A stretch of DNA of 39,084 bases from NCBI GenBank assembly GCA_016181465.1, contig JACOZG010000001.1, positions 1 through 39,084 of the forward strand. Reading direction: 5' to 3'. This document shows, piece after piece, positions 21,173 through 39,084 of the stretch. The notes below the pieces were generated by a model, which was given only the letters and a program-made list of their open reading frames with translations, did not search any database and was not told the DNA's origin. Positions within the stretch are counted from its first letter, which is position 1; every line of letters starts with the position of its first letter. The DNA comes from Candidatus Vogelbacteria bacterium (lineage in GTDB: Bacteria; Patescibacteriota; Minisyncoccia; Phycocordibacterales; JACOZG01). Made by a program: the position numbers and the translations under genes.

Positions 21173-21751
21173 ATGAGGAAGATGAAAAAGGGAACTAAGA
21201 AAATTATTAGCCCGACCAAACTAAAAGTTCTGCTCCTTTTCGGTTCAGGGGTGATGCTCGGTCTGACCAGATCACCGAAACAATATTTCAAACTCGTCCG
21301 CACCACAACCAAACTTTGGCACTTCATTGACGAAACTTATTTACGCCGGCTGGTGAAAGAATTTTACGAAGACCGACTGGTGGATTATCGCGAGAGAGAT
21401 GACGGTAAAATTGAGGTAGTGATAACCGAACGCGGCCGTAATACCTTACTCCGTTACGATATTGACCGGTTGGAAATTAGACCCTCGGCGCGCTGGGACG
21501 GCAAATGGCGCATTGTCATTTTCGATATACCAGAACGATTGCGAACCGGCCGCGATGCCTTGCGTCAAAAATTACGCGAGTTAGGTTTTCAAAAATTGCA
21601 AGAGTCGGTTTTCATTATCCCCCACCCTTGTGCGAACGAAATAAATTTTCTGATTGAATTTTTCGATCTCCGTTATTTTGTTCGTCTTTTAGAAACGGAT
21701 AAAATCACTAATGAAGCCGAACTCCTGCTTAAATTCAAACTCCGTAAATAA
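21173..21751 (+). CDS. PaaX-like protein: winged-helix region plus Cas2-like ferredoxin-fold domain
   Basis: ITERG wing, then WDGKWRIVIFDIPE..R..RDALRQKL..LGF..LQESV. Lies opposite in orientation between mraY and ftsW. Confidence 0.85.
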   Translation: MRKMKKGTKKIISPTKLKVLLLFGSGVMLGLTRSPKQYFKLVRTTTKLWHFIDETYLRRLVKEFYEDRLVDYRERDDGKIEVVITERGRNTLLRYDIDRLEIRPSARWDGKWRIVIFDIPERLRTGRDALRQKLRELGFQKLQESVFIIPHPCANEINFLIEFFDLRYFVRLLETDKITNEAELLLKFKLRK

Positions 21752-25328: not shown

Positions 25329-26716
25329 CGAGAATCAATTTTTAGTTTTAATTCTTTGAGTTGCTCGGGGGTGACGGCGGCCGGCGCGCCCATCAAGAGA
25401 TCCCGGCCCTCGCCGGTCTTAGGGAAAGCGATGACTTCGCGGATGTTCGGCTCGCCAGCCAGAATGCTAACCAACCGATCGAGTCCCCAGGCGATCCCGC
25501 CGTGCGGCGGCGCGCCTCGGGCCAAAGCTTGGAGCAGGTGCCCGAAGTTCCGGGCAATGGCGGCGGCGTCATAGCCCAAAATTCGAAAAACCGCCCGCAG
25601 GGCTTCCGGCCGGTGATTGCGGATACTGCCGCCGCCGATCTCTGACCCGTTCAAAACAATATCGTATTGACTGGTGATAATCTCGCCGATTTTCTCCCCT
25701 TTCAATAGTTGCTCCATGAATTCCGGTTTTGGCGCGGAAAACGGATTATGGGTAAAGGTCCAAGCGCCGGTTTCGGTTTTTTCAAAAAACGGAAAATCAG
25801 TAATCCAGCAAAAAGCCAGAGTCTGGCTGTCATTTTTGTTCGGCCGCAAATCCGGACGATCACTGCCGTATTCATCCATCGCTTCACGATAAGTCAGACG
25901 CGGAAAGGGCGTTTGTAAAATCTTTTTTCCCGGCAATAATTCTTTGACCAAAGCGATGAGCAAGGTCTCGTTCAAAATCATCACTTCCTCCTGTTCGACG
26001 AACGCCATTTCCAAATCAAGCTGGGTAAATTCCGGTTGACGATCGCCGCGGGTGTCTTCATCGCGGAAACAGCGCGCGATCTGAAAATATTTTTCCACGC
26101 CGGCGACCATCAAGAGTTGCTTGTACTGCTGGGGCGACTGCGGCAGGGCGTAAAACTGCCCGGGTTGGAGCCGCGACGGCACCAGGTAATCCCGCGCGCC
26201 CTCGGGCGTGGTTTGAGAAAGAATCGGCGTTTCCACTTCGATGAACCCTCTCTCCGACAGATAATCGCGGATAAATTTGACCAAGCGATGACGGAAATGA
26301 AGATTTTGCTGGAGGCGTGGTCGGCGGAGATCGAGATAGCGGTACTCGAGACGAATTTCTTCAGCGAGCTCGCGGCCGTCAGTCTGAAGATCAAACGGCG
26401 GCGTTTCGGCCTGATTTAAAATCTTAATCTCTCCAACTTCAACCTCGAGGTCGCCGTTGGCGATTTCAGAATTAACCATCTTCTCCGGCCGCTTCTTGAT
26501 CTGGCCAATGACCTCAATCACCCACTCCGGCCGCAATTTGTCGGCGGTTTCGTGAACCGGCCCGGGACCGACCACCAACTGGACCTTGCCCGACCCGTCG
26601 CGGAGATCAAAAAAAATCAGTTGGCCGTGATCCCGCCGCACATCCACCCACCCGGCGAGAGTCACCGTCTCACCAATCCGGTTTTTTAAATCCTCAATCC
26701 TGGTCCGGTTTTGCAT
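25325..26716 (-). CDS. aspS: Aspartate--tRNA ligase (short form lacking the GAD insertion)
   Basis: OB fold, RLEYRYLDLRR, PEGARDY, LPQSPQ, CFRDED and PPHGGIAWGLDR. Confidence 0.96.
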   Translation of the reverse strand: MQNRTRIEDLKNRIGETVTLAGWVDVRRDHGQLIFFDLRDGSGKVQLVVGPGPVHETADKLRPEWVIEVIGQIKKRPEKMVNSEIANGDLEVEVGEIKILNQAETPPFDLQTDGRELAEEIRLEYRYLDLRRPRLQQNLHFRHRLVKFIRDYLSERGFIEVETPILSQTTPEGARDYLVPSRLQPGQFYALPQSPQQYKQLLMVAGVEKYFQIARCFRDEDTRGDRQPEFTQLDLEMAFVEQEEVMILNETLLIALVKELLPGKKILQTPFPRLTYREAMDEYGSDRPDLRPNKNDSQTLAFCWITDFPFFEKTETGAWTFTHNPFSAPKPEFMEQLLKGEKIGEIITSQYDIVLNGSEIGGGSIRNHRPEALRAVFRILGYDAAAIARNFGHLLQALARGAPPHGGIAWGLDRLVSILAGEPNIREVIAFPKTGEGRDLLMGAPAAVTPEQLKELKLKIDSR

Positions 26717-26731
26717 AAATAAAGTTTAACA

Positions 26732-28117
26732 CTATTTTGCTGGTTTTTCTATCAATTCTTCAACCTTTCTTTTGGCTTCCTCTAGCAATTGTTTCGCCTG
26801 CTTCTGCGCCTCGTGCGATTCACGCACCAGCTCCGCTATTCTTTGCTGGGTATCTTTTCTAACGATTGGAATTTTAAATTTTCTCAAGTTTTTTGCGTAG
26901 ATATATGGCTGTGCAAGGCCGCTTTTATCTCTCTCTGCTTGCATTCTTCCAACTACAGAGTTCAAACAAAAACCTAGAAAAATAGGATCAATTTTTGTCG
27001 CATCGGCCCTAATCAAATTTATGAAACTTCCAATTGCAATATCTTCGCTTTCCAAATAATTATGACAATACCCCAAATTAGCACCGACGGAATAATATAA
27101 AATATCGTTTTTCTTTACCAAATATGGCTTGTTCTTCTTTTCTTCAAAAAAAGATTTCGATACCCTTGGTTCATTATCAGCGGTCAAAAAGGAATAATCT
27201 ATTGATTTATCGCCGATCCATTTTTGAGAAAAAAATCTTACCTCCCCGTTTTCTGAATACGGAGGTTGAACACCGTTATTTATAAAGGTGGTCAAATCTT
27301 CCAAAAATTTCCACCCGATGGAATACTTTTCAATCTTTTCAATAACATCCTGAAATTTCGGCTGGAAGTATTCTGCGTCCATTCTGCTCGCCTTTTTGAC
27401 TTTGGACAGATTCACAACATTCCACAATTCCCCGCCTGCCTCGAAATCTTCCAATCCCAACTTCCCCAAAAGCACCTTTTCTGCTTGAGAGTAAAAATCT
27501 TCCGCTTTTCCCCTTTCCTGAAAAGCATCTGCCGCAATTTTGTCTACCTCTTGTATTTGCGCTACATTTGGACATGGAACAACAAAGGTCTTTATTTTGT
27601 CTATAAACAAATTGAGTTGCACATTGCCAGTAGACTCACGCACAGATTGAAATCTGCCGTACTTACTGTTCAAGAAGGTAGATAAAAAGTATGGGGAAAT
27701 AAGTTGATTGTTATGCAATCGGATTATTCCAACATGACGGTCAGCGTTTGCTGGAAGCATTGATTGGTCCACAACCGCGGCATTTCCTATCGTTCCAACT
27801 GATGACAAAAGTACATCTCCAATTTTTAGCGCTGTTCGTTTATTAACATTGTGTTGCTTTTCGGACATAAATTGTTCAACGCTTTCAAAATAGTTATCTT
27901 TAGGAGCTTGCGCAGAAAAACACCTGATGTTGCTGTCAGGATCATAATCAATAGATGCATGTATACCATCGGTAATAAATGCTAATTCGTCCAACAATTT
28001 TATTTTTTGTTTTCTTAACTTTTCGTTCAACAGAAGATACTCTGGCTGGTAATATTCCGCATCCAGCCGCTTCGCGCCTTCGAGTTGAGATTTTTGGATT
28101 GTTGAAAAAACAGCCAT
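26732..28117 (-). CDS. Restriction-modification specificity (S) subunit
   Basis: Two TRD-like halves, each opened by R(L/M)DAEY(Y/F)QP, with helical spacers. Confidence 0.88.
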   Translation of the reverse strand: MAVFSTIQKSQLEGAKRLDAEYYQPEYLLLNEKLRKQKIKLLDELAFITDGIHASIDYDPDSNIRCFSAQAPKDNYFESVEQFMSEKQHNVNKRTALKIGDVLLSSVGTIGNAAVVDQSMLPANADRHVGIIRLHNNQLISPYFLSTFLNSKYGRFQSVRESTGNVQLNLFIDKIKTFVVPCPNVAQIQEVDKIAADAFQERGKAEDFYSQAEKVLLGKLGLEDFEAGGELWNVVNLSKVKKASRMDAEYFQPKFQDVIEKIEKYSIGWKFLEDLTTFINNGVQPPYSENGEVRFFSQKWIGDKSIDYSFLTADNEPRVSKSFFEEKKNKPYLVKKNDILYYSVGANLGYCHNYLESEDIAIGSFINLIRADATKIDPIFLGFCLNSVVGRMQAERDKSGLAQPYIYAKNLRKFKIPIVRKDTQQRIAELVRESHEAQKQAKQLLEEAKRKVEELIEKPAK

Positions 28118-28119
28118 GG

Positions 28120-28755
28120 TTAATGGAGGTCGTCGGAAATCTGAATAAGCCCTGCTTTTAGTAAAATCTTTGTTGTGTTTTGTATAACGCTATAAATCAC
28201 CTTAACATTCATATCGGCTTTGGCCGTGGTATCAATTGATTCTCCATAAAAATGCGCGGGAGTGTGACGATAATTTCTCAAAAAACTTTTCATTTCTTTG
28301 ATCCTGTCCTTAACGTCTCGTTTCTCGTAAGTTGTCAACTTAGCTGTGGCATCCGCCTTCTTCTCAAGTTCCTTCAGCAACTTATCAACGTGTTTATCAA
28401 TTTTCTCTTCATCAAAATAATAAGCTCCTGCTGTATCGTTGTTTCCTGAAGACGGTAAAGCTAAGTCTTTGGCAACCTGAAAAAGAAAACCTTCTAGCGC
28501 TTTATATGCAGGCGCGGTCGCAAACGAATAATCATTAAAATATAGATCTCCTCGGTCGCGCAAAACTTTGTGGATACACATGGAATCCATAAGGTGGTTT
28601 AGTACTTTCTCGCTCAGGTAGAAAAGGACCGTTTGATCGAAAGTGCTGTCAAGACTGTCTCTCTGCTGATGGCCGCGAGCCCTTCCGAACACTTCCTCTT
28701 GGCTCCAATCTTTGCCAGATGGCAAGCGCTGATTCAATCGATAATATTTACTCAT
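28120..28755 (-). CDS. Putative HEPN ribonuclease resembling the RnlA/LsoA C-terminal domain
   Basis: DYSFATAPAYKALEGFL and an Rx4H motif (RHTPAH) in a helical protein. Confidence 0.6.
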   Translation of the reverse strand: MSKYYRLNQRLPSGKDWSQEEVFGRARGHQQRDSLDSTFDQTVLFYLSEKVLNHLMDSMCIHKVLRDRGDLYFNDYSFATAPAYKALEGFLFQVAKDLALPSSGNNDTAGAYYFDEEKIDKHVDKLLKELEKKADATAKLTTYEKRDVKDRIKEMKSFLRNYRHTPAHFYGESIDTTAKADMNVKVIYSVIQNTTKILLKAGLIQISDDLH

Positions 28756-29306
28756 ACAGTTATTAGTTTTGCTCCATCTTCCACTATTTTTTGATCGATC
28801 TGCGTGACGAGTCCCAAGTCTTGAGCCGCTACTGAACCTAGCACAGCTCCACCGCGCATCAATTTTTGGATTTCCTCGATTTCCTTTTTACATGTTTCTG
28901 CTATAACTTTCGCAATATTTTGTCTATCGATCCGCAGTCCTTCGACCCACTCAACCAATGTTGTCTCCGATAAATTGAGGGGTTGGGAAGTATTTCTAGA
29001 GATATCGTGAATTATGAATCTAGCATTAGGTACACTGATTCTTTTAGTACCCGCGCAAAAAATTACCGCAGCTATGGAGTCTACACTACCGAAATTTACG
29101 GTTTCTATTTCTTCCACCGGAATACCTTTAAGGTAGTTAAAAACACTCAAGCCAGGGTCCACAAATCCTCCAGGAGAAGAGACTAGAATGCGGAAACGCT
29201 TTACACCTTCTCGAAATTCTCTTTCAACACACTGAATCAACGCTTCGGCGGACTGATTGTCCACCTGCTTCATAAAACGAATGGTGGTTTTTTGATTCGC
29301 GGGCAT
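28752..29306 (-). CDS. ClpP-like (S14) serine protease
   Basis: SSPGGFV, GSVDSIAAVIF (Ser), KR..PNARFIIH (His) and A.DLGLV. ATG 29306 lies 7 nt after the upstream stop. Confidence 0.85.
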   Translation of the reverse strand: MPANQKTTIRFMKQVDNQSAEALIQCVEREFREGVKRFRILVSSPGGFVDPGLSVFNYLKGIPVEEIETVNFGSVDSIAAVIFCAGTKRISVPNARFIIHDISRNTSQPLNLSETTLVEWVEGLRIDRQNIAKVIAETCKKEIEEIQKLMRGGAVLGSVAAQDLGLVTQIDQKIVEDGAKLITV

Positions 29307-29313
29307 ATGACGT

Positions 29314-31266
29314 TTAGAGATTAAGTTTCTGTTCCTTTGCAAACTTCGCGAAGCCTTCTGCGATGGCGTCGAGGTCGTGGTCGAGCACTTTGCGACCTTT
29401 GCCGTCATGAACGTAATTTCCGTTTCGATCCTTTTTGTAGACATAATCTCCGGAATTATCTTTACCACCTTTTTTCGACACGGCCATAAAAATTGGATAG
29501 TCGACTTGTGATTCACCAGCCTCCTTCCCCCATTTTTGCAAGAACAGGACGCTGGTCTTTACGCCGGCGTGAGGTTTAAAAGTATTTCCATGCAATCCGA
29601 CTACAGCTAAAATTCTAGCTTTATCAAATAAATAATCTCGAATGTATTCTGCTTGTGTGTTATTCAAAATACCTTGCGGCAAAACAATCGCCATTCGCCC
29701 GCCGGGTCGAAGCATATCAAGTGCCCGTTCAATAAAAAGAATATGCCGCTCGACATTATTGCGGAGCTTACCGCTTTCCTTTTTTGCCAACTCATACTGA
29801 CGCAAAAGTCCTTGTTCCGGATTTTCCCCGGCAAAGGGCGGATTGGTCAACAGAATATCAAAATTCAGATGCCGATAGGTCAGATAATTTTCTTTATCGC
29901 TCTCGTTATTATCAAGAGTTTGCAGTAAAGATTTAAGCGCCACACGCGCCTCCTCGGCCTCCGTGCCCGTCCACTCCCGAGCGTCCAGTGAATCCCGCTT
30001 GAAAATGTGGTGCTTGCCGTCGCCGGCAATAAGCATGAGCGCCTGCGATATCCGGCGCATATTGTTATCAAAGTCAGTACCGAAAAGGTGTTTGGCCGCA
30101 TAGGCCTTTTTTGCTGGCTCGCTTTTAAGAAAATGATCCCAAACATGATACATCGTATGAAGCAGGAATCCGCCGGAGCCGCAGGCGGGATCTATCACAT
30201 ACTCGTCTTCTTTCGGACCGAGCATTTTAACGCACATTTTAACAACATGGCGCGGTGTGAAATACTGACCTCTGTTTCCTCTTGAAACCTCGGTAATAAG
30301 ATGCTCAAACGCCGCGTCAATAATTTCGTATTCTCCCTGCCCCAACTCAAACAATCGAATATCTTCCATAAACGGAACACAGATGTTAAGACGAGACGCG
30401 GTGAGCTTGATGTGGTCAGAAAGCTCGAATGTATCGGGCCACTCTTTGATTGCGTCCTTAAAAAGTCCGTTAACAACTTCATAGGTTTTCTCCGGATCTT
30501 TATATCTCCTAAACAAGATCTCTTTATTTCCTCTTTTATGGATGGCTAACTGCTCATCATAGAGCTTGGCGTAAATGAGCTTGAAAATTTCCTCAAACAC
30601 ATTCTCGCCGGAACCAGCCAGCGCTAGTTCCTCTATCCGTTTTACAATCTTAATGAAATCAAATTTGGGAGTTAAATCATTCCAGGTCTTTTTAATTTCA
30701 AACAGATCGTCCACAGTCTGATCAGCCGTGGGAATCTCGCTCAACGACTCATACTCCCGCGGATATGGGCGGTACAAAATTACTTTATCTGTGCCGTTTG
30801 ACCAAACGCCAATCTCCGAACCCTCGGCGCTTAAATATGCCTTTAATTGTTCCTGCCCCTTCTTTTCGCTTGGCGCTTTGACCTCAATAATAATATACGG
30901 CGTTATCTTATCTTTTTTGTAAACAACAATATCTGCCGCCTTAGCGTGAATTTCCCGTCCGAAATGAACACTCTTTTCCGTTTCCATCCGTTCCAGTGGA
31001 TATTTATAGTGAGTATAGAGTTTATGGAGCCAAAGCTGGCGAACGATTTCTTCCGGCTTCCCTATATTTTTCTTCGCGTCAAAAACCAAACGCTTTTTGT
31101 CACTCTTCAGATCGGTAATGAAAAAGCGATTCGGTTCGTCCTCGGTGATTTTAAGTGCTGTTTCGAATACCACATTTTCAAATTCCTTGAGCCCGTAGAG
31201 CAGTTCGTTGTCCTTAAAAATTTTCCCGATTATTTCTCCAGCTTTGTTTAGTTTTTTGGTAGGCAT
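29314..31266 (-). CDS. Fused restriction endonuclease / N6-adenine methyltransferase (Type IIG/IIB-like)
   Basis: N-terminal PEEIVRQ..ADIVV..IEVK nuclease motif, GQYFTPR, DPACGSGGFL and NPPF. Confidence 0.92.
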   Translation of the reverse strand: MPTKKLNKAGEIIGKIFKDNELLYGLKEFENVVFETALKITEDEPNRFFITDLKSDKKRLVFDAKKNIGKPEEIVRQLWLHKLYTHYKYPLERMETEKSVHFGREIHAKAADIVVYKKDKITPYIIIEVKAPSEKKGQEQLKAYLSAEGSEIGVWSNGTDKVILYRPYPREYESLSEIPTADQTVDDLFEIKKTWNDLTPKFDFIKIVKRIEELALAGSGENVFEEIFKLIYAKLYDEQLAIHKRGNKEILFRRYKDPEKTYEVVNGLFKDAIKEWPDTFELSDHIKLTASRLNICVPFMEDIRLFELGQGEYEIIDAAFEHLITEVSRGNRGQYFTPRHVVKMCVKMLGPKEDEYVIDPACGSGGFLLHTMYHVWDHFLKSEPAKKAYAAKHLFGTDFDNNMRRISQALMLIAGDGKHHIFKRDSLDAREWTGTEAEEARVALKSLLQTLDNNESDKENYLTYRHLNFDILLTNPPFAGENPEQGLLRQYELAKKESGKLRNNVERHILFIERALDMLRPGGRMAIVLPQGILNNTQAEYIRDYLFDKARILAVVGLHGNTFKPHAGVKTSVLFLQKWGKEAGESQVDYPIFMAVSKKGGKDNSGDYVYKKDRNGNYVHDGKGRKVLDHDLDAIAEGFAKFAKEQKLNL

Positions 31267-31267
31267 A

Positions 31268-31903
31268 TTATTTTATCGGTTGCCAATAATTGTTTTTAAG
31301 GATTGAAATTATTTTTCCTTTCAACTCCATCTCGTGGGTAAAAGGGATAAGTTGATATTTTGGATTTTCCGGCTTGAGATACACGTACGGCGGTTTGTCA
31401 TCGGACATAAATCGCTTGATCGTGCCTTCGTCGCCAATTTGAGCATAGACAATTTCGCCGGACACAAATTCCTTTTTAGTTTGAACCAACACCGCATCGC
31501 CATCATCAATGCCCGCATTGATCATTGAGTCGCCTGAAACTTTTAGCATAAACACTTCTTCGATTAATCTGGAAACTTCTTGAGAAACGGGTCGCCACTC
31601 GCCGGAAATTTCGATGGCTTCGGCGGGCATACCCGCCGTCGTTACGCCGAGGATTAGAACGAGCGGCGGCAAGTTAAGCAATTTGTAGCCGAGGGGCAAG
31701 ATTGCCAGAGTTCTTGCCCCCGTCTCTTTTTTAACGATTTTTAACTGCCTTAATTTTTCAAGCAGGTCCGCGACTGACTGATTGGAAGAGACACCGAGAT
31801 TCTCTCGCATTTCTGCAAAAGTTGGCGGATAGCCAGATGATTTGATAAAATCATAAATTACCCCAAGAAGTTGTTTTTGCCTTGCCGTTATTAACTTTTC
31901 CAT
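31268..31903 (-). CDS. lexA: LexA-family repressor with S24 autoprotease
   Basis: TARQ..GYPPT..E HTH, Ala-Gly cleavage site (TAGMP), GDSM Ser and TIKR Lys. Confidence 0.9.
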   Translation of the reverse strand: MEKLITARQKQLLGVIYDFIKSSGYPPTFAEMRENLGVSSNQSVADLLEKLRQLKIVKKETGARTLAILPLGYKLLNLPPLVLILGVTTAGMPAEAIEISGEWRPVSQEVSRLIEEVFMLKVSGDSMINAGIDDGDAVLVQTKKEFVSGEIVYAQIGDEGTIKRFMSDDKPPYVYLKPENPKYQLIPFTHEMELKGKIISILKNNYWQPIK

Positions 31904-33104: not shown

Positions 33105-33840
33105 ATGAAGTGGAAGAAAACATTGGGAGTGGCGGTTGTGGTGGCGATGGTCGGGTGGTGGGGATCGGCCAAGGCCGGTCCGGTGGTGGATCAACATTAG
33201 CGAGTCGAGCAGTTTCACCAACAGCTCTCCAACGCAAGGGCAAGCCCAAGGGAGCTTCGGCGGTCAGTTCGTGGCCACCGACTTGCAGTCTTCGTTGTCG
33301 ATTTGGTTGAATCCAGATCCGCAACCCGGAAACCTCGGGCAGTTCAGCTTCTCAAGCTCGGCCAACGGATTTATCCCAGAACCGGGTCAGAACTTGGACG
33401 CGTTCCTCAACAACCAACTCAATACGAACAGCTCGCTTCGGATTAACCAGGTGACAACAGAACCAAGCCCGGACGGCGATTACATCAATTACATTTTCAA
33501 TCCGGAGCTCTCCCTGTACGGCAACGGCAGTTCGAAGTTGTACCAATTCCCGGACACACCGCCGCTTTGGAGCAACTTCTACAGTAACGTTTACGTTGAA
33601 GGCGGAATGGTGACTAACATCTCGACTGACATCGAGCGCAACATCTGGTCCGGGGACGGCGCGCCACCGCCGTGGTTGAGCGATCTGCGCCTCAACTTCT
33701 ACGCGAGCGGCGTGATTACGGCGGGAAACTTTACCATCGTCCCCGAGCCGGCATCACTAGCGCTCTTGAGCGCTGGTGGAGTCGCGATGATCTACCGCAA
33801 ACGTCGTCTCTCGCGCCTCCGACTCAACCCGATCGGCTAA
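33105..33840 (+). pseudogene. PEP-CTERM sorting-domain protein, frameshifted after the signal peptide
   Basis: AAGGAG and ATG 33105 give a signal peptide that stops at TAG 33198-33200. The +1 frame ends in VPEPASLALLSAGGVAMIYRKRR. Confidence 0.8.
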
Positions 33841-35274: not shown

Positions 35275-36915
35275 TTACACCTCCACAATAAACCTCGACC
35301 CCTTCCCCGCCCCTTCGCTCTCGGCCCAAATTTTGCCGTTGTGCGCTTCCACAATTTGCTTGGCCACATAGAGCCCGAGGCCGGTGCCCTGGATATTGAT
35401 TTTGCCGGCGCCGTCGGCGCGGATAAATTTTTGAAAAAGTTTTGGCATCACGCCAGCCGGAATGCCAACACCCGAGTCAACCACGGTTAAACGAACCTTT
35501 CCATCTTTACGTTCCAGCGCCACATTGATCCAGCCTGCGAGCGTGTATTTAACCGCGTTGTCAATCAAATTGCCAACAACTTGCGCCAATTTCCCCGGGT
35601 CGCCGGTAAATTTGTAATCCGTGTCCGGCGCCGGCCCGAAACTAAATTGCAAACCGCGCTTCTCAATGCTCGGCCGCAGTTCAGTCACCACTTTATTAAC
35701 CATCTCTCGAAAATCAAATTCCTGTTTTTCATACTTCATCGTGCCGAGTTCAATCCGGCTAATGTCGAGGAAATCTTCAATCACCTGAACCAACTTCTGA
35801 CTGGATTGAAAGATAATATCAATCGCCTCACGGGCTTTCTCCTCAACCGGGCCGAACGAATTTTCCAGAATCATTGAAGTATAACCCTTGATGGCGGTGA
35901 GTGGCGCGCGCAGTTGATGCGTCGCCATGGACACAAACTCGGTTTTCATCTTATCCAACTCCTGCAATTTCTCGTTAGCCACCCACAATTTGTCGTTAGC
36001 GTGCCCTAACTCGCGCATCAGTCCCTCAATCTTCTCCCGTTGATTGACCTCCTTTTTGACCGAGCGGATGAGAAAGATGCCGGCGACCACCACTAACGCT
36101 AGAGTCAAACCGTTAACTAACCAATCAGTGAGCGTCTTGGACAGTAAAGTCGGAATCAGAATCACGAGCCACAAGGCAAAAACCAAAAGTTGGGTGGCAA
36201 TAACTTTGATGTTAAAAAGATGATGGCGAGTAATGGCGTAGGCGGTAATTCCAAGAAACAGAAGTACATAAAGTGGGGTAAGTGGTACAAAAAAGGTTGA
36301 TCCTAAAATTATTATTGGCAACAAAACAGTAAACACAATTAATAGAAACAACGCGGATAGCGCAAAAAAGACTAGTTTGATTTGGTTCTTTTGATTTGGT
36401 TCATTGAAACGATATGTTTTTCGTAATAATTCAACAACTGCCGAAACACTAAAAAAAGTTGACAATATGGTAAATGGGATAATACCCCAACCTGTTTCGA
36501 TTCCGGCCAATCCTTTTTCTACATCTACATCCTTGAAAGAAAAAGGTGATAAATTAATTAAAATTACAACGAATGTTACTAGATACAGTGTGTTTAAGAT
36601 TTTCCTAGAAATAAACGGGCGATTTTCCGGTATGACTTTTGCTAAAAGCAAGAAACCTAAACTCATTAAGATGGCAAAACTTATACTGGAACGAGCAAGT
36701 ATCAAAAATAGATTTTTATTTTCCAAAACTGTTGGCAAGAAAGCAGTGTAATTAGCACCTAACCAAAGTATTATGCTTAACCCCAAAAAAGAAAAAGCTC
36801 TGTTGCTATGAGATTTTCTATTTGAAAAAAAAACCCCTATAACCAGGATTAAACTTAATAATTGACTTATTAAGAAAATAAGAGAAAGAAGGGGGGTAAA
36901 AATTACCTCTATCAT
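35275..36915 (-). CDS. Sensor histidine kinase with multi-TM (HisKA_7TM-like) input domain
   Basis: Many TM helices, H box ATHQLRAPLT, NLIDNAVKYT, DSGVGI and GTGLGL. Confidence 0.95.
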   Translation of the reverse strand: MIEVIFTPLLSLIFLISQLLSLILVIGVFFSNRKSHSNRAFSFLGLSIILWLGANYTAFLPTVLENKNLFLILARSSISFAILMSLGFLLLAKVIPENRPFISRKILNTLYLVTFVVILINLSPFSFKDVDVEKGLAGIETGWGIIPFTILSTFFSVSAVVELLRKTYRFNEPNQKNQIKLVFFALSALFLLIVFTVLLPIIILGSTFFVPLTPLYVLLFLGITAYAITRHHLFNIKVIATQLLVFALWLVILIPTLLSKTLTDWLVNGLTLALVVVAGIFLIRSVKKEVNQREKIEGLMRELGHANDKLWVANEKLQELDKMKTEFVSMATHQLRAPLTAIKGYTSMILENSFGPVEEKAREAIDIIFQSSQKLVQVIEDFLDISRIELGTMKYEKQEFDFREMVNKVVTELRPSIEKRGLQFSFGPAPDTDYKFTGDPGKLAQVVGNLIDNAVKYTLAGWINVALERKDGKVRLTVVDSGVGIPAGVMPKLFQKFIRADGAGKINIQGTGLGLYVAKQIVEAHNGKIWAESEGAGKGSRFIVEV

Positions 36916-36921
36916 CGACTT

Positions 36922-38466
36922 TTAAAATTTAAATTCTTCTTTTCGTATTAATTCAATCACGCTTTCTATATCTACACGCATATTTCTATCTTTTTCCAAA
37001 AATGCCACTTGTTTTCTAATAAGCGCATGCACTTTTTGAGAAACTTTGCTCGTCTTTCCAATCCCCCGAATTTCCAATGCCTGTGTAGCCGACAAAAAAA
37101 CAATGGCAGTGAGCCGTTCTAAATTTTTTACAGCCTCGTAAAAATCAATAGCCGCGTGTGTTCCCAAACTATTAACATCTTGATTATCTCCTTCAGTTGG
37201 TATCATAAAATTTTGTTGTGAGTGCGCTAATTTTCTATTTTGAACCGCGAGTGCGGCTGAGAGTATTTGTATAGACTTGAAACCGTGATGGGTATTTTCT
37301 TCTATCACTAAATTATCCGGCAGGCCGCCACTTTTTCGAGAATTGTACAAATTAGCTAATATTGCATGAATCCAAGACGATGCTTGTGCTATATCAATTT
37401 TCATTATGTCCGCCGCTTCTGTAATGTAATAGCCCATAAAATTTGCAGTGTGGTAAATAGTGGATTGTTCATCAAATATAGGATTATCATTTGCTGAATT
37501 CATTTCATCCTCTATCCACTTAGTGGCTGTCTGCAAATTTTCATAAAAGGGACCGAAACCGTGAGCTAATGCTCGTAATGAATAATAATCCTGAAGACCT
37601 ATCCCTTTATTTAGAGCTTTTTTATTATTGGTTCTAATTAAACTACTGCCTGCCCATTGATCTCTAACGAAACCAGCCACCTTTTTTTGTCCATCGTGAT
37701 GTTTCTGAAGGTGGACGAATGGTTTATACCCATCATCGTAAATACGCAGAGATTCTAGGGTCATAGCAATACCGCGGAGGAGTTGAGGGAAAATTATTTT
37801 TAAATCATGCATTGCTAAAGAAGAAATCGCCGTCATAAAAGAAGTGCCATTCATCAAGGCCAATCCATCTCTTGACTCGATACTCATTAACTTAATACTG
37901 AATTTTTTAAAAATATCATGTGTCTTTTTCTTTTCATTACCCAATAGCGCGTATTCACTAAAACCAAATAAAACAGAGGCAATGGCTGATAATGGTATTA
38001 AATCGCCACTGGCGCCTATTGAACCATAACGATAAATAATGGGGTGAATATGGTAGTTGAGAAATTTTACAAGCATATCTATAATTTCTGGCCTCACGCC
38101 GGAACAACCACGAGCTAGACTGTTAGCCCTCAAAAGCATGGTTGCTCGTATTACATCTATTGATACAATATCACCCAAACCACATTCAAAAGATTTAATG
38201 AGGTTTTCTTGTCTTTCTCTGATAGATTGTCGATATATCTTATCTTCGGCCCCTAGTTTGTTATCAAAGATATGTCCCTGGCTACCAAACTGTGTAGATA
38301 AACCATAAATAGGTATCCTTTTCACTTGCAATTGTTCTAGAATTTTATAAGATCTTTCTGCTAATTTCTTATCCTTAAACAGAACACTGGCCATATTACG
38401 GGCTACCTCATGACACTCATCGAGTTTTAGATATTTTTTACCATCTATGATTATTGACTTCTTCAT
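36922..38466 (-). CDS. Aromatic amino acid ammonia-lyase (HAL/PAL/TAL family)
   Basis: IYGLSTQFG, GSIGASGDL (MIO motif), NGTS, QDYYSLR, NDNP and NQDVNS. Confidence 0.93.
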   Translation of the reverse strand: MKKSIIIDGKKYLKLDECHEVARNMASVLFKDKKLAERSYKILEQLQVKRIPIYGLSTQFGSQGHIFDNKLGAEDKIYRQSIRERQENLIKSFECGLGDIVSIDVIRATMLLRANSLARGCSGVRPEIIDMLVKFLNYHIHPIIYRYGSIGASGDLIPLSAIASVLFGFSEYALLGNEKKKTHDIFKKFSIKLMSIESRDGLALMNGTSFMTAISSLAMHDLKIIFPQLLRGIAMTLESLRIYDDGYKPFVHLQKHHDGQKKVAGFVRDQWAGSSLIRTNNKKALNKGIGLQDYYSLRALAHGFGPFYENLQTATKWIEDEMNSANDNPIFDEQSTIYHTANFMGYYITEAADIMKIDIAQASSWIHAILANLYNSRKSGGLPDNLVIEENTHHGFKSIQILSAALAVQNRKLAHSQQNFMIPTEGDNQDVNSLGTHAAIDFYEAVKNLERLTAIVFLSATQALEIRGIGKTSKVSQKVHALIRKQVAFLEKDRNMRVDIESVIELIRKEEFKF

Positions 38467-38473
38467 ATTTTAT

Positions 38474-39084
38474 TTAACTAATTTTACCCAGAAACATTCT
38501 CGGTTTTTTACCGGCAATTTGAATCATTGATTTTTTTCTTACTTGAAACATTGTTGGATTTTGAAATTCAAATAAAAGAATGTTGGGCTCCACTATTTCT
38601 CCGTAGGTCCCATGTAACTTCCGAAATTCTGAACTAAAGTTAAGCAAATTCTTAGTGATAGATTTTTTGATTATTAGCTTGTTCCTCTCTGTAATACTGA
38701 TACCTTTAGCAAGTTCAACCCTTATGAATAACTTTTGTTTTTTTAACTCACCTTCAGTGTAAGTTACGTAGGCGCCTGTTACTAAATTTATTGTATTATC
38801 GGTTTTTAAACCACCATAAATATATTTAGGAAAAATATTTATTGCATAAAATAAAATCATTACATCTAATCTACCAGTTAAAATTAGAAGTGGTTGTTGA
38901 GTTTGTTTAGTTACTAAAGGCATAGTTTTTGCGTATAGCCTATTTTTCCCGAAAAGGTTTTTCAATTCAGTGAAAGAAAAAACGCGCCCAGTATCTTTTA
39001 TGCCATATCGCACAAGCGGTATACCACCGTTAGTGGTTAGTAGAAGTTCTGACTTTTGCTCTTCAAAATAAATTATAGATGGAT
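38474..39084 (-). CDS. Phenylacetate-CoA ligase-like adenylating enzyme, C-terminal part (runs off the window)
   Basis: The frame is open to the window edge: YFEE..ELLLTT..GIPLVRYGIKDTG, then LTGRLD, INIFP and a terminal GKKPR. Confidence 0.75.
   Translation of the reverse strand, partial: PSIIYFEEQKSELLLTTNGGIPLVRYGIKDTGRVFSFTELKNLFGKNRLYAKTMPLVTKQTQQPLLILTGRLDVMILFYAINIFPKYIYGGLKTDNTINLVTGAYVTYTEGELKKQKLFIRVELAKGISITERNKLIIKKSITKNLLNFSSEFRKLHGTYGEIVEPNILLFEFQNPTMFQVRKKSMIQIAGKKPRMFLGKIS

Follow-up and report, generated by a model that had tools for sequence, protein, structure and literature searches.

The oxazolone pathway was discovered recently in bacteria, and the gene cluster that we describe here is partly homologous to it. 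According to the available portions of the source reports, TrzS (Rv1355c) of Mycobacterium tuberculosis forms an oxazolone from N-acyl tryptophan, TyzB/TyzC and OxzB perform the same conversion on tyrosine and phenylalanine derivatives, and in these known systems the N-acyl amino acid is supplied by an acyltransferase of the FeeM/LuxI fold (PMC12856293, PMC10404671, bioRxiv 10.1101/2020.06.11.147165). N-acyl oxazolones structurally resemble acyl-homoserine lactones, as the authors point out in the available part of their article (PMC12856293). No ligase, kinase or member of the Candidate Phyla Radiation (CPR) is mentioned in the portions available of PMC12856293, PMC10404671 and bioRxiv 10.1101/2020.06.11.147165, and a literature search combining Patescibacteria or CPR with ammonia-lyase, PaaK-like ligase and oxazolone, supplements not covered, returned nothing on this cluster. 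The present analysis concerns three genes at one end of a 39,084-bp stretch of DNA from a groundwater Candidatus Vogelbacteria bacterium (Patescibacteriota; GenBank assembly GCA_016181465.1, contig JACOZG010000001.1), hereafter the window, which encode a PaaK-like ligase, an aromatic amino-acid lyase and a membrane histidine kinase. The window is the entire contig G000:C2 of a 644-kb assembly (G000; 48 contigs, 91% complete). We see about an even chance that the three genes form the downstream end of a widespread Patescibacteria operon type, in which the lyase feeds the ligase, the ligase makes the product and the kinase acts as sensor. The features of the locus are as follows.

38474-39082, feature extending to 39084, minus strand: PaaK-like adenylate-forming ligase, C-terminal 202 amino acids (residues ~291-491), with its 5' end cut by the contig end.
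36922..38466, minus strand: lyase or aminomutase acting on aromatic amino acids and dependent on 4-methylideneimidazole-5-one (MIO), 514 amino acids, of a distinct subfamily, predicted from PF00221 and motifs.
35275..36915, minus strand: membrane sensor histidine kinase, 546 amino acids (HisKA_7TM, HisKA, HATPase_c).
36208..36876, minus strand: HisKA_7TM sensor domain of the kinase (amino acids 14-236), with a low GC content at third codon positions (GC3) of ~0.28.
36080..36240, no strand: breakpoint in composition and similarity inside the kinase gene (amino acids ~226-278), with GC3 rising from ~0.28 to ~0.6 and nucleotide identity to the relative G004 falling from 97-100% to 60-85%.
35281..35949, minus strand: kinase core (HisKA, amino acids 323-390; HATPase_c, amino acids 438-545), of native composition.
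36150..39084, no strand: low-GC segment with ligase, lyase and the kinase's sensor region, from GC content and mosaic identity.

The trio lies entirely on the minus strand with intergenic gaps of 7 bp (ligase/lyase) and 6 bp (lyase/kinase), which bears out the tight, co-directional spacing described in the initial annotation. The same order recurs in a genome of the same genus (G004), in L014 (98.9% identical to G004) and on the metagenome contig L100, so that the trio is a genuine, conserved arrangement and no accidental string of open reading frames. G004 holds the complete module, with a ligase of 491 amino acids, a lyase 92% identical and a kinase 86% identical to those of the window, in the same order and at the same spacing. 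Between 34000 and 39084, neither promoter-like sites (9, against 11.6 in shuffled sequences) nor terminator-like sites (5, against 5.2) were in excess; the spacing suggests that ligase, lyase and kinase are co-transcribed.

Under the proposed mechanism, the MIO lyase would deaminate an aromatic amino acid, most likely phenylalanine, to a cinnamate-type acid. The PaaK-like ligase would then adenylate the aromatic carboxylic acid and transfer it to an acceptor, most likely an amino acid, which would be acylated at its amino group to an N-(aryl-acyl) amino acid. In most related clusters, conversion of this compound to an oxazolone-type molecule could follow, catalysed by a ThiF-like cyclase that uses ATP and a flavin oxidase of the nitroreductase family. 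The operon ends in the seven-transmembrane (7TM) histidine kinase, which may be a dedicated sensor that regulates the pathway or, alternatively, answers to a lipophilic or aromatic ligand linked with it. In the window, a low-GC segment of ligase, lyase and sensor would have been exchanged among close relatives and fused in frame to a resident kinase core.

The evidence for such an operon type comes from a survey of 401 evenly sampled Patescibacteria genomes, about one tenth of which (43/401) carry the ligase family. We took 38 of the 42 non-self ligase loci with ~±7 kb on either side, leaving out those of G136, G138, G243 and G402, and named neighbour families from 3-4 representatives per cluster. 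The following neighbours recur.

Same-type kinase no more than four genes downstream, on the same strand: 32/38 loci.
Kinase of the same type 4.4-6 kb downstream (G180, G248, G363): 3/38 further loci, making 35/38 within 7 kb.
ThiF-like protein: 29/38 loci.
Nitroreductase-family flavin oxidase: 21/38 loci.
Single-domain response regulator: 12/38 loci.
ScyB-like aromatic amino-acid (Trp) dehydrogenase: 8/38 loci.
FlxA/TAL-like lyase: 4/38 loci.
Short-chain dehydrogenase: 4/38 loci.
Aminotransferase: 3/38 loci.

The initial annotation had staked its reading on adjacency to the kinase being conserved and had called for a survey of the genes beside this kinase family in CPR: the adjacency holds across the ligase loci counted above, where ThiF and oxidase genes recur as well. 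The ThiF-like proteins match positions ~36-348 of the NF005901 'Rv1355c family' model with 288-298 bits, and the cluster oxidases match positions ~375-713 with 178-190 bits. As the two thus correspond to the N- and C-terminal halves of the TrzS family, the pathway points to an N-acyl amino acid or oxazolone and not to an aryl-homoserine lactone. The accessory enzymes, whether MIO lyase, dehydrogenase or aminotransferase, all act by removing the alpha-amino group from an amino acid. The likely, though still predicted, product of the cluster is an N-(aryl-acyl) amino acid or its oxazolone. The aryl-homoserine lactone that the initial annotation gave as an example finds no support, the conserved partner genes being homologues of oxazolone synthase: a tblastn search of G000 with two queries of the N-acyl amino acid synthase (NAS)/autoinducer-synthase fold gave no match, and the scanned window proteins included no Autoind_synth domain, LuxR not having been searched for.

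A second line of evidence comes from 16 ligase-negative loci, chosen from the top of the search with the kinase sensor. Three of the 16 have an NAS of the FeeM/autoinducer-synthase fold directly upstream of the 7TM kinase (L109 in G053, L110 in G415 and L124 in G436), two of the three together with a ThiF gene, and L110 with a response regulator downstream. No gene of this fold occurs at any ligase locus. The presence of NAS at ligase-negative loci and its absence from all ligase loci supports a non-orthologous replacement of the acyltransferase by the ligase. These observations point to a PaaK-like ligase standing in the place of the acyltransferase, a role without precedent in oxazolone-type chemistry.

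Gene orders in related genomes connect the window with this cluster. In G710, of the same class, the order is ThiF-ligase-lyase-oxidase-..-kinase, and the lyase is 51% identical to that of the window and belongs to the same subfamily. Within the family, we find ThiF-oxidase-ligase-kinase in G001, lyase-ligase-ThiF-oxidase-..-kinase in G013 and G009, and lyase-ThiF-ligase in G015. The window trio is a reduced or incompletely assembled form of the Patescibacteria cluster. Upstream of the G004 module, in divergent orientation, lie a lyase scoring as histidase, a GNAT gene and an AstE/AspA-like gene, followed farther up by an M48 peptidase and a nitroreductase-type oxidase; the ThiF-like gene of G004 adjoins that of ribosomal protein L9 on a separate contig. 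The initial annotation had advised looking upstream for an acyltransferase, LuxI or reductase gene: those present there in G004 include the GNAT gene and the oxidase, and the tblastn search of G000 gave no gene of the NAS/autoinducer-synthase fold. Synteny shows that G000 and G004 differ by an inversion, one breakpoint of which falls at S41 peptidase|oxidase and the other at L9|ThiF. Eleven genes of the G004 flanks were not found in the G000 assembly: the oxidase, M48, AstE-like, GNAT, histidase and ThiF genes, and five beyond ThiF. The simplest reading is that they form one unassembled block past the contig end, and since they go missing together at that point, the absence of ThiF and oxidase from G000 is not established.

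The upstream part had been placed outside the window; the ligase is indeed truncated at its 5' end, and as the window is the whole contig, what is missing lies off the contig altogether. The 5' part was found neither at the low-GC ends of the G000 contigs C27, C44 and C46 nor by a search of the whole genome, and Logan pieces gave no extension beyond the contig end. The window contig and L014 stop at the identical base within the ligase gene (window 39084, L014 position 1), and in Logan pieces several variants occur together that branch at 36306-36335, 37028-37057 and 38047-38076. Mixtures of strains sharing recombined stretches probably break the assemblies.

The ligase fragment represents the C-terminus of a protein of ~491 amino acids, with full-length homologues 75% identical and that of G004 86% identical. 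Neither the fragment nor its full-length homologues matched any Pfam family, AMP-binding included. A profile of 47 ligase-family sequences nevertheless matched the PaaK structure 2Y4O (E=6e-22), and with an AlphaFold model of the G004 ligase (predicted local distance difference test, 87.7) the best Foldseek match was PaaK1 (E=3e-21, template-modelling scores 0.61/0.69-0.70), followed by BT_0428, AjiA1, NatL2 and ClxA, entries that carry aromatic acids or their adenylates. NatL2, AjiA1 and ClxA are reported to act without CoA. G88, G91, D320 and K483 are invariant in the 47 family members, and the invariant Asp and C-terminal Lys fall in the part of the alignment that the window fragment covers. 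Scores on the PaaK equivalog TIGR02155 range from 11 to 48 bits, against a cut-off of 646. Fold and invariant residues predict a PaaK-clade aryl-acid adenylating enzyme. Of the aromatic lyase and CoA ligase put forward initially, the activation of an aryl acid by an enzyme of this clade thus stands; CoA as acceptor is unsupported, the matching folds including AMP-ligases. Scans of genomes and metagenome contigs with the ligase returned the same lineage only (L013, which is G004, L014, L100 and L101), and no donor of the low-GC segment was identified in them. At 32-36% identity, the ligase family reaches Nostocales cyanobacteria and actinomycetes ('phenylacetate--CoA ligase family protein'; P0203-P0241). 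Lyase and ligase homologues also come in pairs from contigs of matching size (981549, 10447, 12304) and are probably co-located.

The lyase matches PF00221 with 408 bits (residues 13-485 on profile positions 1-466) and falls below all curated NCBIfam cut-offs, its best match being a histidase model. It scores 321.3 bits against a cut-off of 539 and 337.3 against 524 on hutH models, 236.6 against 519 on phe_am_lyase, and 266 against 800 on Phe_D_beta_mut. The triad Ala152-Ser153-Gly154 (GASGD, 151-155), Tyr54 of IYG and Arg298 of YSLR align with the SgTAM chains and their relatives; we take the triad to be MIO-forming, the Tyr to be catalytic and the Arg to bind the carboxylate. Phe93 aligns with the phenol-binding His of the SgTAM chains, a position at which, as we assume from work on RsTAL, a His/Phe switch sets the preference for tyrosine or phenylalanine. 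Given Phe93, the substrate is most likely phenylalanine, which would yield a cinnamate-type acid. The 120 best homologues are ~50% identical, and many are labelled Patescibacteria, with some from Legionella/Aquicella. At the position of Phe93, 67 have His, 51 Leu and two Phe, the last being the window lyase itself and an 83% identical relative. The MIO motif is present in 120/120 homologues and NFMG in 118/120; the window lyase shows the subfamily motifs TQFG, NFMG and NQDVNSLG. On these motifs, the window lyase and its relatives are recognizable as a coherent, uncharacterised MIO subfamily, in which lyase and mutase look alike from sequence.

The best NCBIfam match would fit a plain hut histidase, for which the scores fall far short of the cut-offs. 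The lyase moreover shows SF and NQD at positions occupied by SH and NQED in the true histidase of G004 (Phe and NQD, against His and QED), and neither hutU (PF01175) nor hutI (TIGR01224) was found in the five genomes G000, G004, G001, G013 and G009 (0/5 each, controls positive). The initial identification as an aromatic MIO enzyme and not a histidase, with no other hut genes around it, is upheld by these results. The histidase of G004 (L012 8782-12030), which passes the hutH cut-offs with 662 and 668 bits and is accompanied by the GNAT and AstE/AspA-like genes, sits directly beside the ligase module, yet in a genome without hutU or hutI.

Lyase and aryl-acid ligase are also the first half of known phenylpropanoid routes, and PaaK, to which the ligase fold is closest, is itself a catabolic CoA ligase. 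The pair might accordingly be catabolic or serve salvage, feeding carbon from phenylalanine or tyrosine into metabolism in the form of cinnamoyl-CoA or coumaroyl-CoA, and the kinase would then sense the amino acid. This seems quite improbable to us. No downstream hydratase, dehydrogenase or thiolase gene was found in the window or at the G004 locus, the recurring partners are ThiF-like and flavin-oxidase genes, and the genome, at 644 kb, has a housekeeping content. Aromatic lyases are rare in the phylum, occurring in just 10/401 genomes, in line with the scarcity of amino-acid catabolism in CPR that had been assumed at the outset.

The kinase carries HisKA_7TM (37.3 bits, threshold 28.6; amino acids 14-236), HisKA (63.2 bits, threshold 26.9; 323-390) and HATPase_c (96 bits, threshold 26.4; 438-545), and hydropathy peaks extend over amino acids 12-290, with two hydrophobic segments in addition to the 7TM domain. 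The 7TM sensor is found in 102/401 genomes, namely in 40 of the 43 that have the ligase and 62 of the 358 that do not, a contrast for which the Fisher p-value overstates the association because the genomes are related and not independent. The ligase is nearly always accompanied by a kinase of the same type, while the kinase often occurs without the ligase.

Composition and identity both change at the junction within the kinase gene. The final 3 kb of the contig has 28-39% GC, against ~51% for the genome, and just past the 7TM domain, over kinase residues ~240-270, GC3 climbs from ~0.28 to ~0.6; the same switch is seen in G004, L014 and L100. Nucleotide identity between G000 and G004 is 94-100% over the 3' part of the lyase and the sensor and 59-88% in the kinase core, and across the segment G000, G004 and L100 are mosaics of one another. 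Protein identity in the core follows kinship (G004 77%, G015 74%, G001 70%, G710 48%), whereas sensor identity is 95% to G004, then 38% to the distant G111 and G320, and 29-33% to kinases of the same family. Compared with G001, the genomes G000 and G004, which share a genus, are 30-32% identical in the sensor and 70-72% in the core. A common donor of sensor and ligase was considered and rejected, because their nearest relatives differ (for the sensor, G111 and G320 at 38%; for the ligase, G710, G358, G422 and G015 at 37-40%). In L100, a transposase of the rve family (247-858) lies directly upstream of the low-GC ligase-lyase-kinase island.

So sharp a switch in GC inside one gene might come from an assembly chimera that joined two organisms. 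The junction is present, however, in G004, L014 and L100 too, and Logan contigs of 4/4 DNA runs from one study bridge it without difference; one of these runs, X1, may come from the source sample. Chimera and hut histidase, taken together, we hold to be extremely improbable, and as far as sequence can tell both are refuted.

A different view of the mosaic is that the enzymes have no functional tie to the ligand of the kinase: the kinase would be resident, and its 5' flank a hotspot for variable low-GC cassettes. The kinase core is present in 25/26 relatives and the ligase in 6/26, in G003 and G002 different genes (ATP-grasp, AdoMet-decarboxylase-like, EamA) lie upstream, and the transposase of L100 fits such a site. 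Yet the ligase and a kinase of this type are neighbours in many families within the phylum, which would not be expected of a lineage-specific hotspot, and the genes share a strand, often a few bases apart. We regard this alternative as improbable.

The same data bear on whether the released product of the cluster is itself the ligand of the adjacent 7TM kinase, closing a loop of self-signalling for quorum or host sensing with co-diversifying genes, a sharpened form of what the initial annotation had inferred. The fixed proximity of synthesis genes and kinase speaks for such a loop, as does a recombining segment that spans ligase, lyase and exactly the sensor domain while the core is conserved; so do the same kinase type beside NAS genes at the three loci mentioned above and the resemblance of N-acyl oxazolones to acyl-homoserine lactones. 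Divergence of ligase and sensor co-varies once the core is controlled for (partial Mantel, 30 loci; partial r 0.27, permutation p~0.0015), an effect due to the long kinases with a GAF domain (n=14, r 0.67). There is, on the other side, no exporter gene in the module, and the differing nearest relatives of sensor and ligase leave no room for simple co-inheritance. Together with the observations that follow, this makes the loop a tentative idea, on the unlikely side.

Several findings weigh against the reading of the trio as the end of an oxazolone-type operon with a dedicated sensor. In the short kinase class, which includes the window kinase, ligase and sensor do not co-vary (n=16, r 0.04, p 0.34). 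The kinase occurs without the ligase in 62/358 genomes, and its ligand need not be the cluster product. At the 16 ligase-free loci it stands beside UbiA prenyltransferases (4), methyltransferases (3) and PlsC-type acyltransferase pairs (2), beside an AMP-binding ligase in 1, and beside others; these enzymes mostly act on lipophilic or acylated small molecules, and the kinase type would fit a sensor for membrane-associated small molecules. No response regulator was found next to the kinase in scans of the window proteins. The ThiF-like and oxidase genes were not found in the G000 assembly, which may lack the oxazolone steps; in G004, the two genes are scattered, the oxidase 5 kb upstream and ThiF on another contig. 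The ligase may just form a CoA thioester, the amino-acid acceptor being our inference; the substrate is deduced from one residue, Phe93, and the lyase might instead be an aminomutase. We did not accept composition as proof of foreign origin, as all nine orthologues (L012, L100, L102, L104-L108, L138) have low GC3 in the sensor half (0.25-0.44, against 0.50-0.67 in the kinase half). Low GC3 being general, it is the identity pattern and not composition that testifies to foreign origin.

CPR bacteria have a minimal metabolism, and very little is known of how they sense partners or hosts. The cluster ties one of the few CPR histidine kinases to small-molecule genes that recur in 43/401 genomes, and gives a specific candidate, open to testing, for a signal or envelope metabolite of CPR. 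With a PaaK-like ligase instead of an acyltransferase, it also suggests a new partner enzyme for chemistry of the oxazolone type, and it is an example of a sensor domain swapped along with enzyme genes onto a conserved kinase core. More speculatively, and here we have clear doubts, it could be an undescribed signalling system of Patescibacteria, in which the 7TM kinase binds an N-(aryl-acyl) amino acid or oxazolone produced by the lyase, ligase, ThiF and flavin oxidase and the cassette co-diversifies into pherotype-like groups among co-occurring episymbiont strains.

Elsewhere in the window, 26600-31903 is a second low-GC block with genes in one direction, encoding an HsdS-like specificity subunit, an RnlA-DBD-like protein, a ClpP-like protease, a large N6-methylase (HSDR_N, N6_Mtase and Eco57I) and a LexA-like S24 protein; it may be a defence or mobile region. 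Another contig, G000:C27, starts with an open frame of 478 amino acids that combines a LexA-like domain with a DNA methylase. At 21173-21751 (plus strand), among MraY, FtsW and MurG and 13 kb from the module, lies a protein of 192 amino acids with a PaaX central (Cas2-like) domain. A protein of 234 amino acids at 33136-33840 (plus strand) bears a C-terminal PEP-CTERM motif (21.8 bits, cut-off 20.7), unusual in a minimal genome.

Set beside described systems, the components compare as follows. The best solved relatives of the lyase are SgTAM and the bacterial tyrosine and phenylalanine ammonia-lyases (TAL/PAL; ~202 bits), with which it shares the catalytic Tyr, the MIO triad and the Tyr, Arg and Asn-Gln motifs; it differs in the Phe that replaces the phenol-binding His, and in the TQFG and NFMG of its subfamily where the known aligned enzymes have TGFG/TGYG and NFHG. 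The ligase has the fold, the SSGSSGxP loop and the invariant Asp and C-terminal Lys of PaaK-family enzymes (PaaK1/2, BT_0428, NatL2, AjiA1, ClxA), from which it is set apart by an identity of ~16%, a score far below the PaaK equivalog cut-off and the lack of a Pfam AMP-binding match. As in the FlxA/FlxY pair of flexirubin synthesis and in modules of PAL/TAL and CoA ligase, an MIO lyase adjoins an enzyme that activates an aryl acid. Cluster lyases of four loci reach 610-615 bits on FlxA, and the ligases of L045 and L046 match FlxY weakly; the window lyase, however, is of another MIO subfamily, ~30% identical to the FlxA-like lyases, and the window has no polyketide or other downstream genes. 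The agr locus of Staphylococcus and comQXP of Bacillus are polymorphic quorum-sensing loci with peptide pheromones. They resemble our locus, in pattern only, by variable synthesis genes and sensor next to a conserved kinase core, and differ in that no peptide gene is found here. The cluster as a whole has a parallel in OxzAB of Pseudoalteromonas rubra, TyzACB and TrzAS (Mycobacterium tuberculosis), whose substrates are, in the available portions of the reports, N-acylated aromatic amino acids (PMC12856293, PMC10404671). The ThiF and flavin oxidase of related Patescibacteria clusters match the two halves of the TrzS model. Where those systems use an acyltransferase of the FeeM/LuxI fold that draws on acyl-CoA, the Patescibacteria have an ATP-dependent PaaK-like ligase; their clusters often add an aromatic amino-acid lyase, dehydrogenase or aminotransferase, and end in a 7TM histidine kinase, the window itself having no detected ThiF or oxidase.

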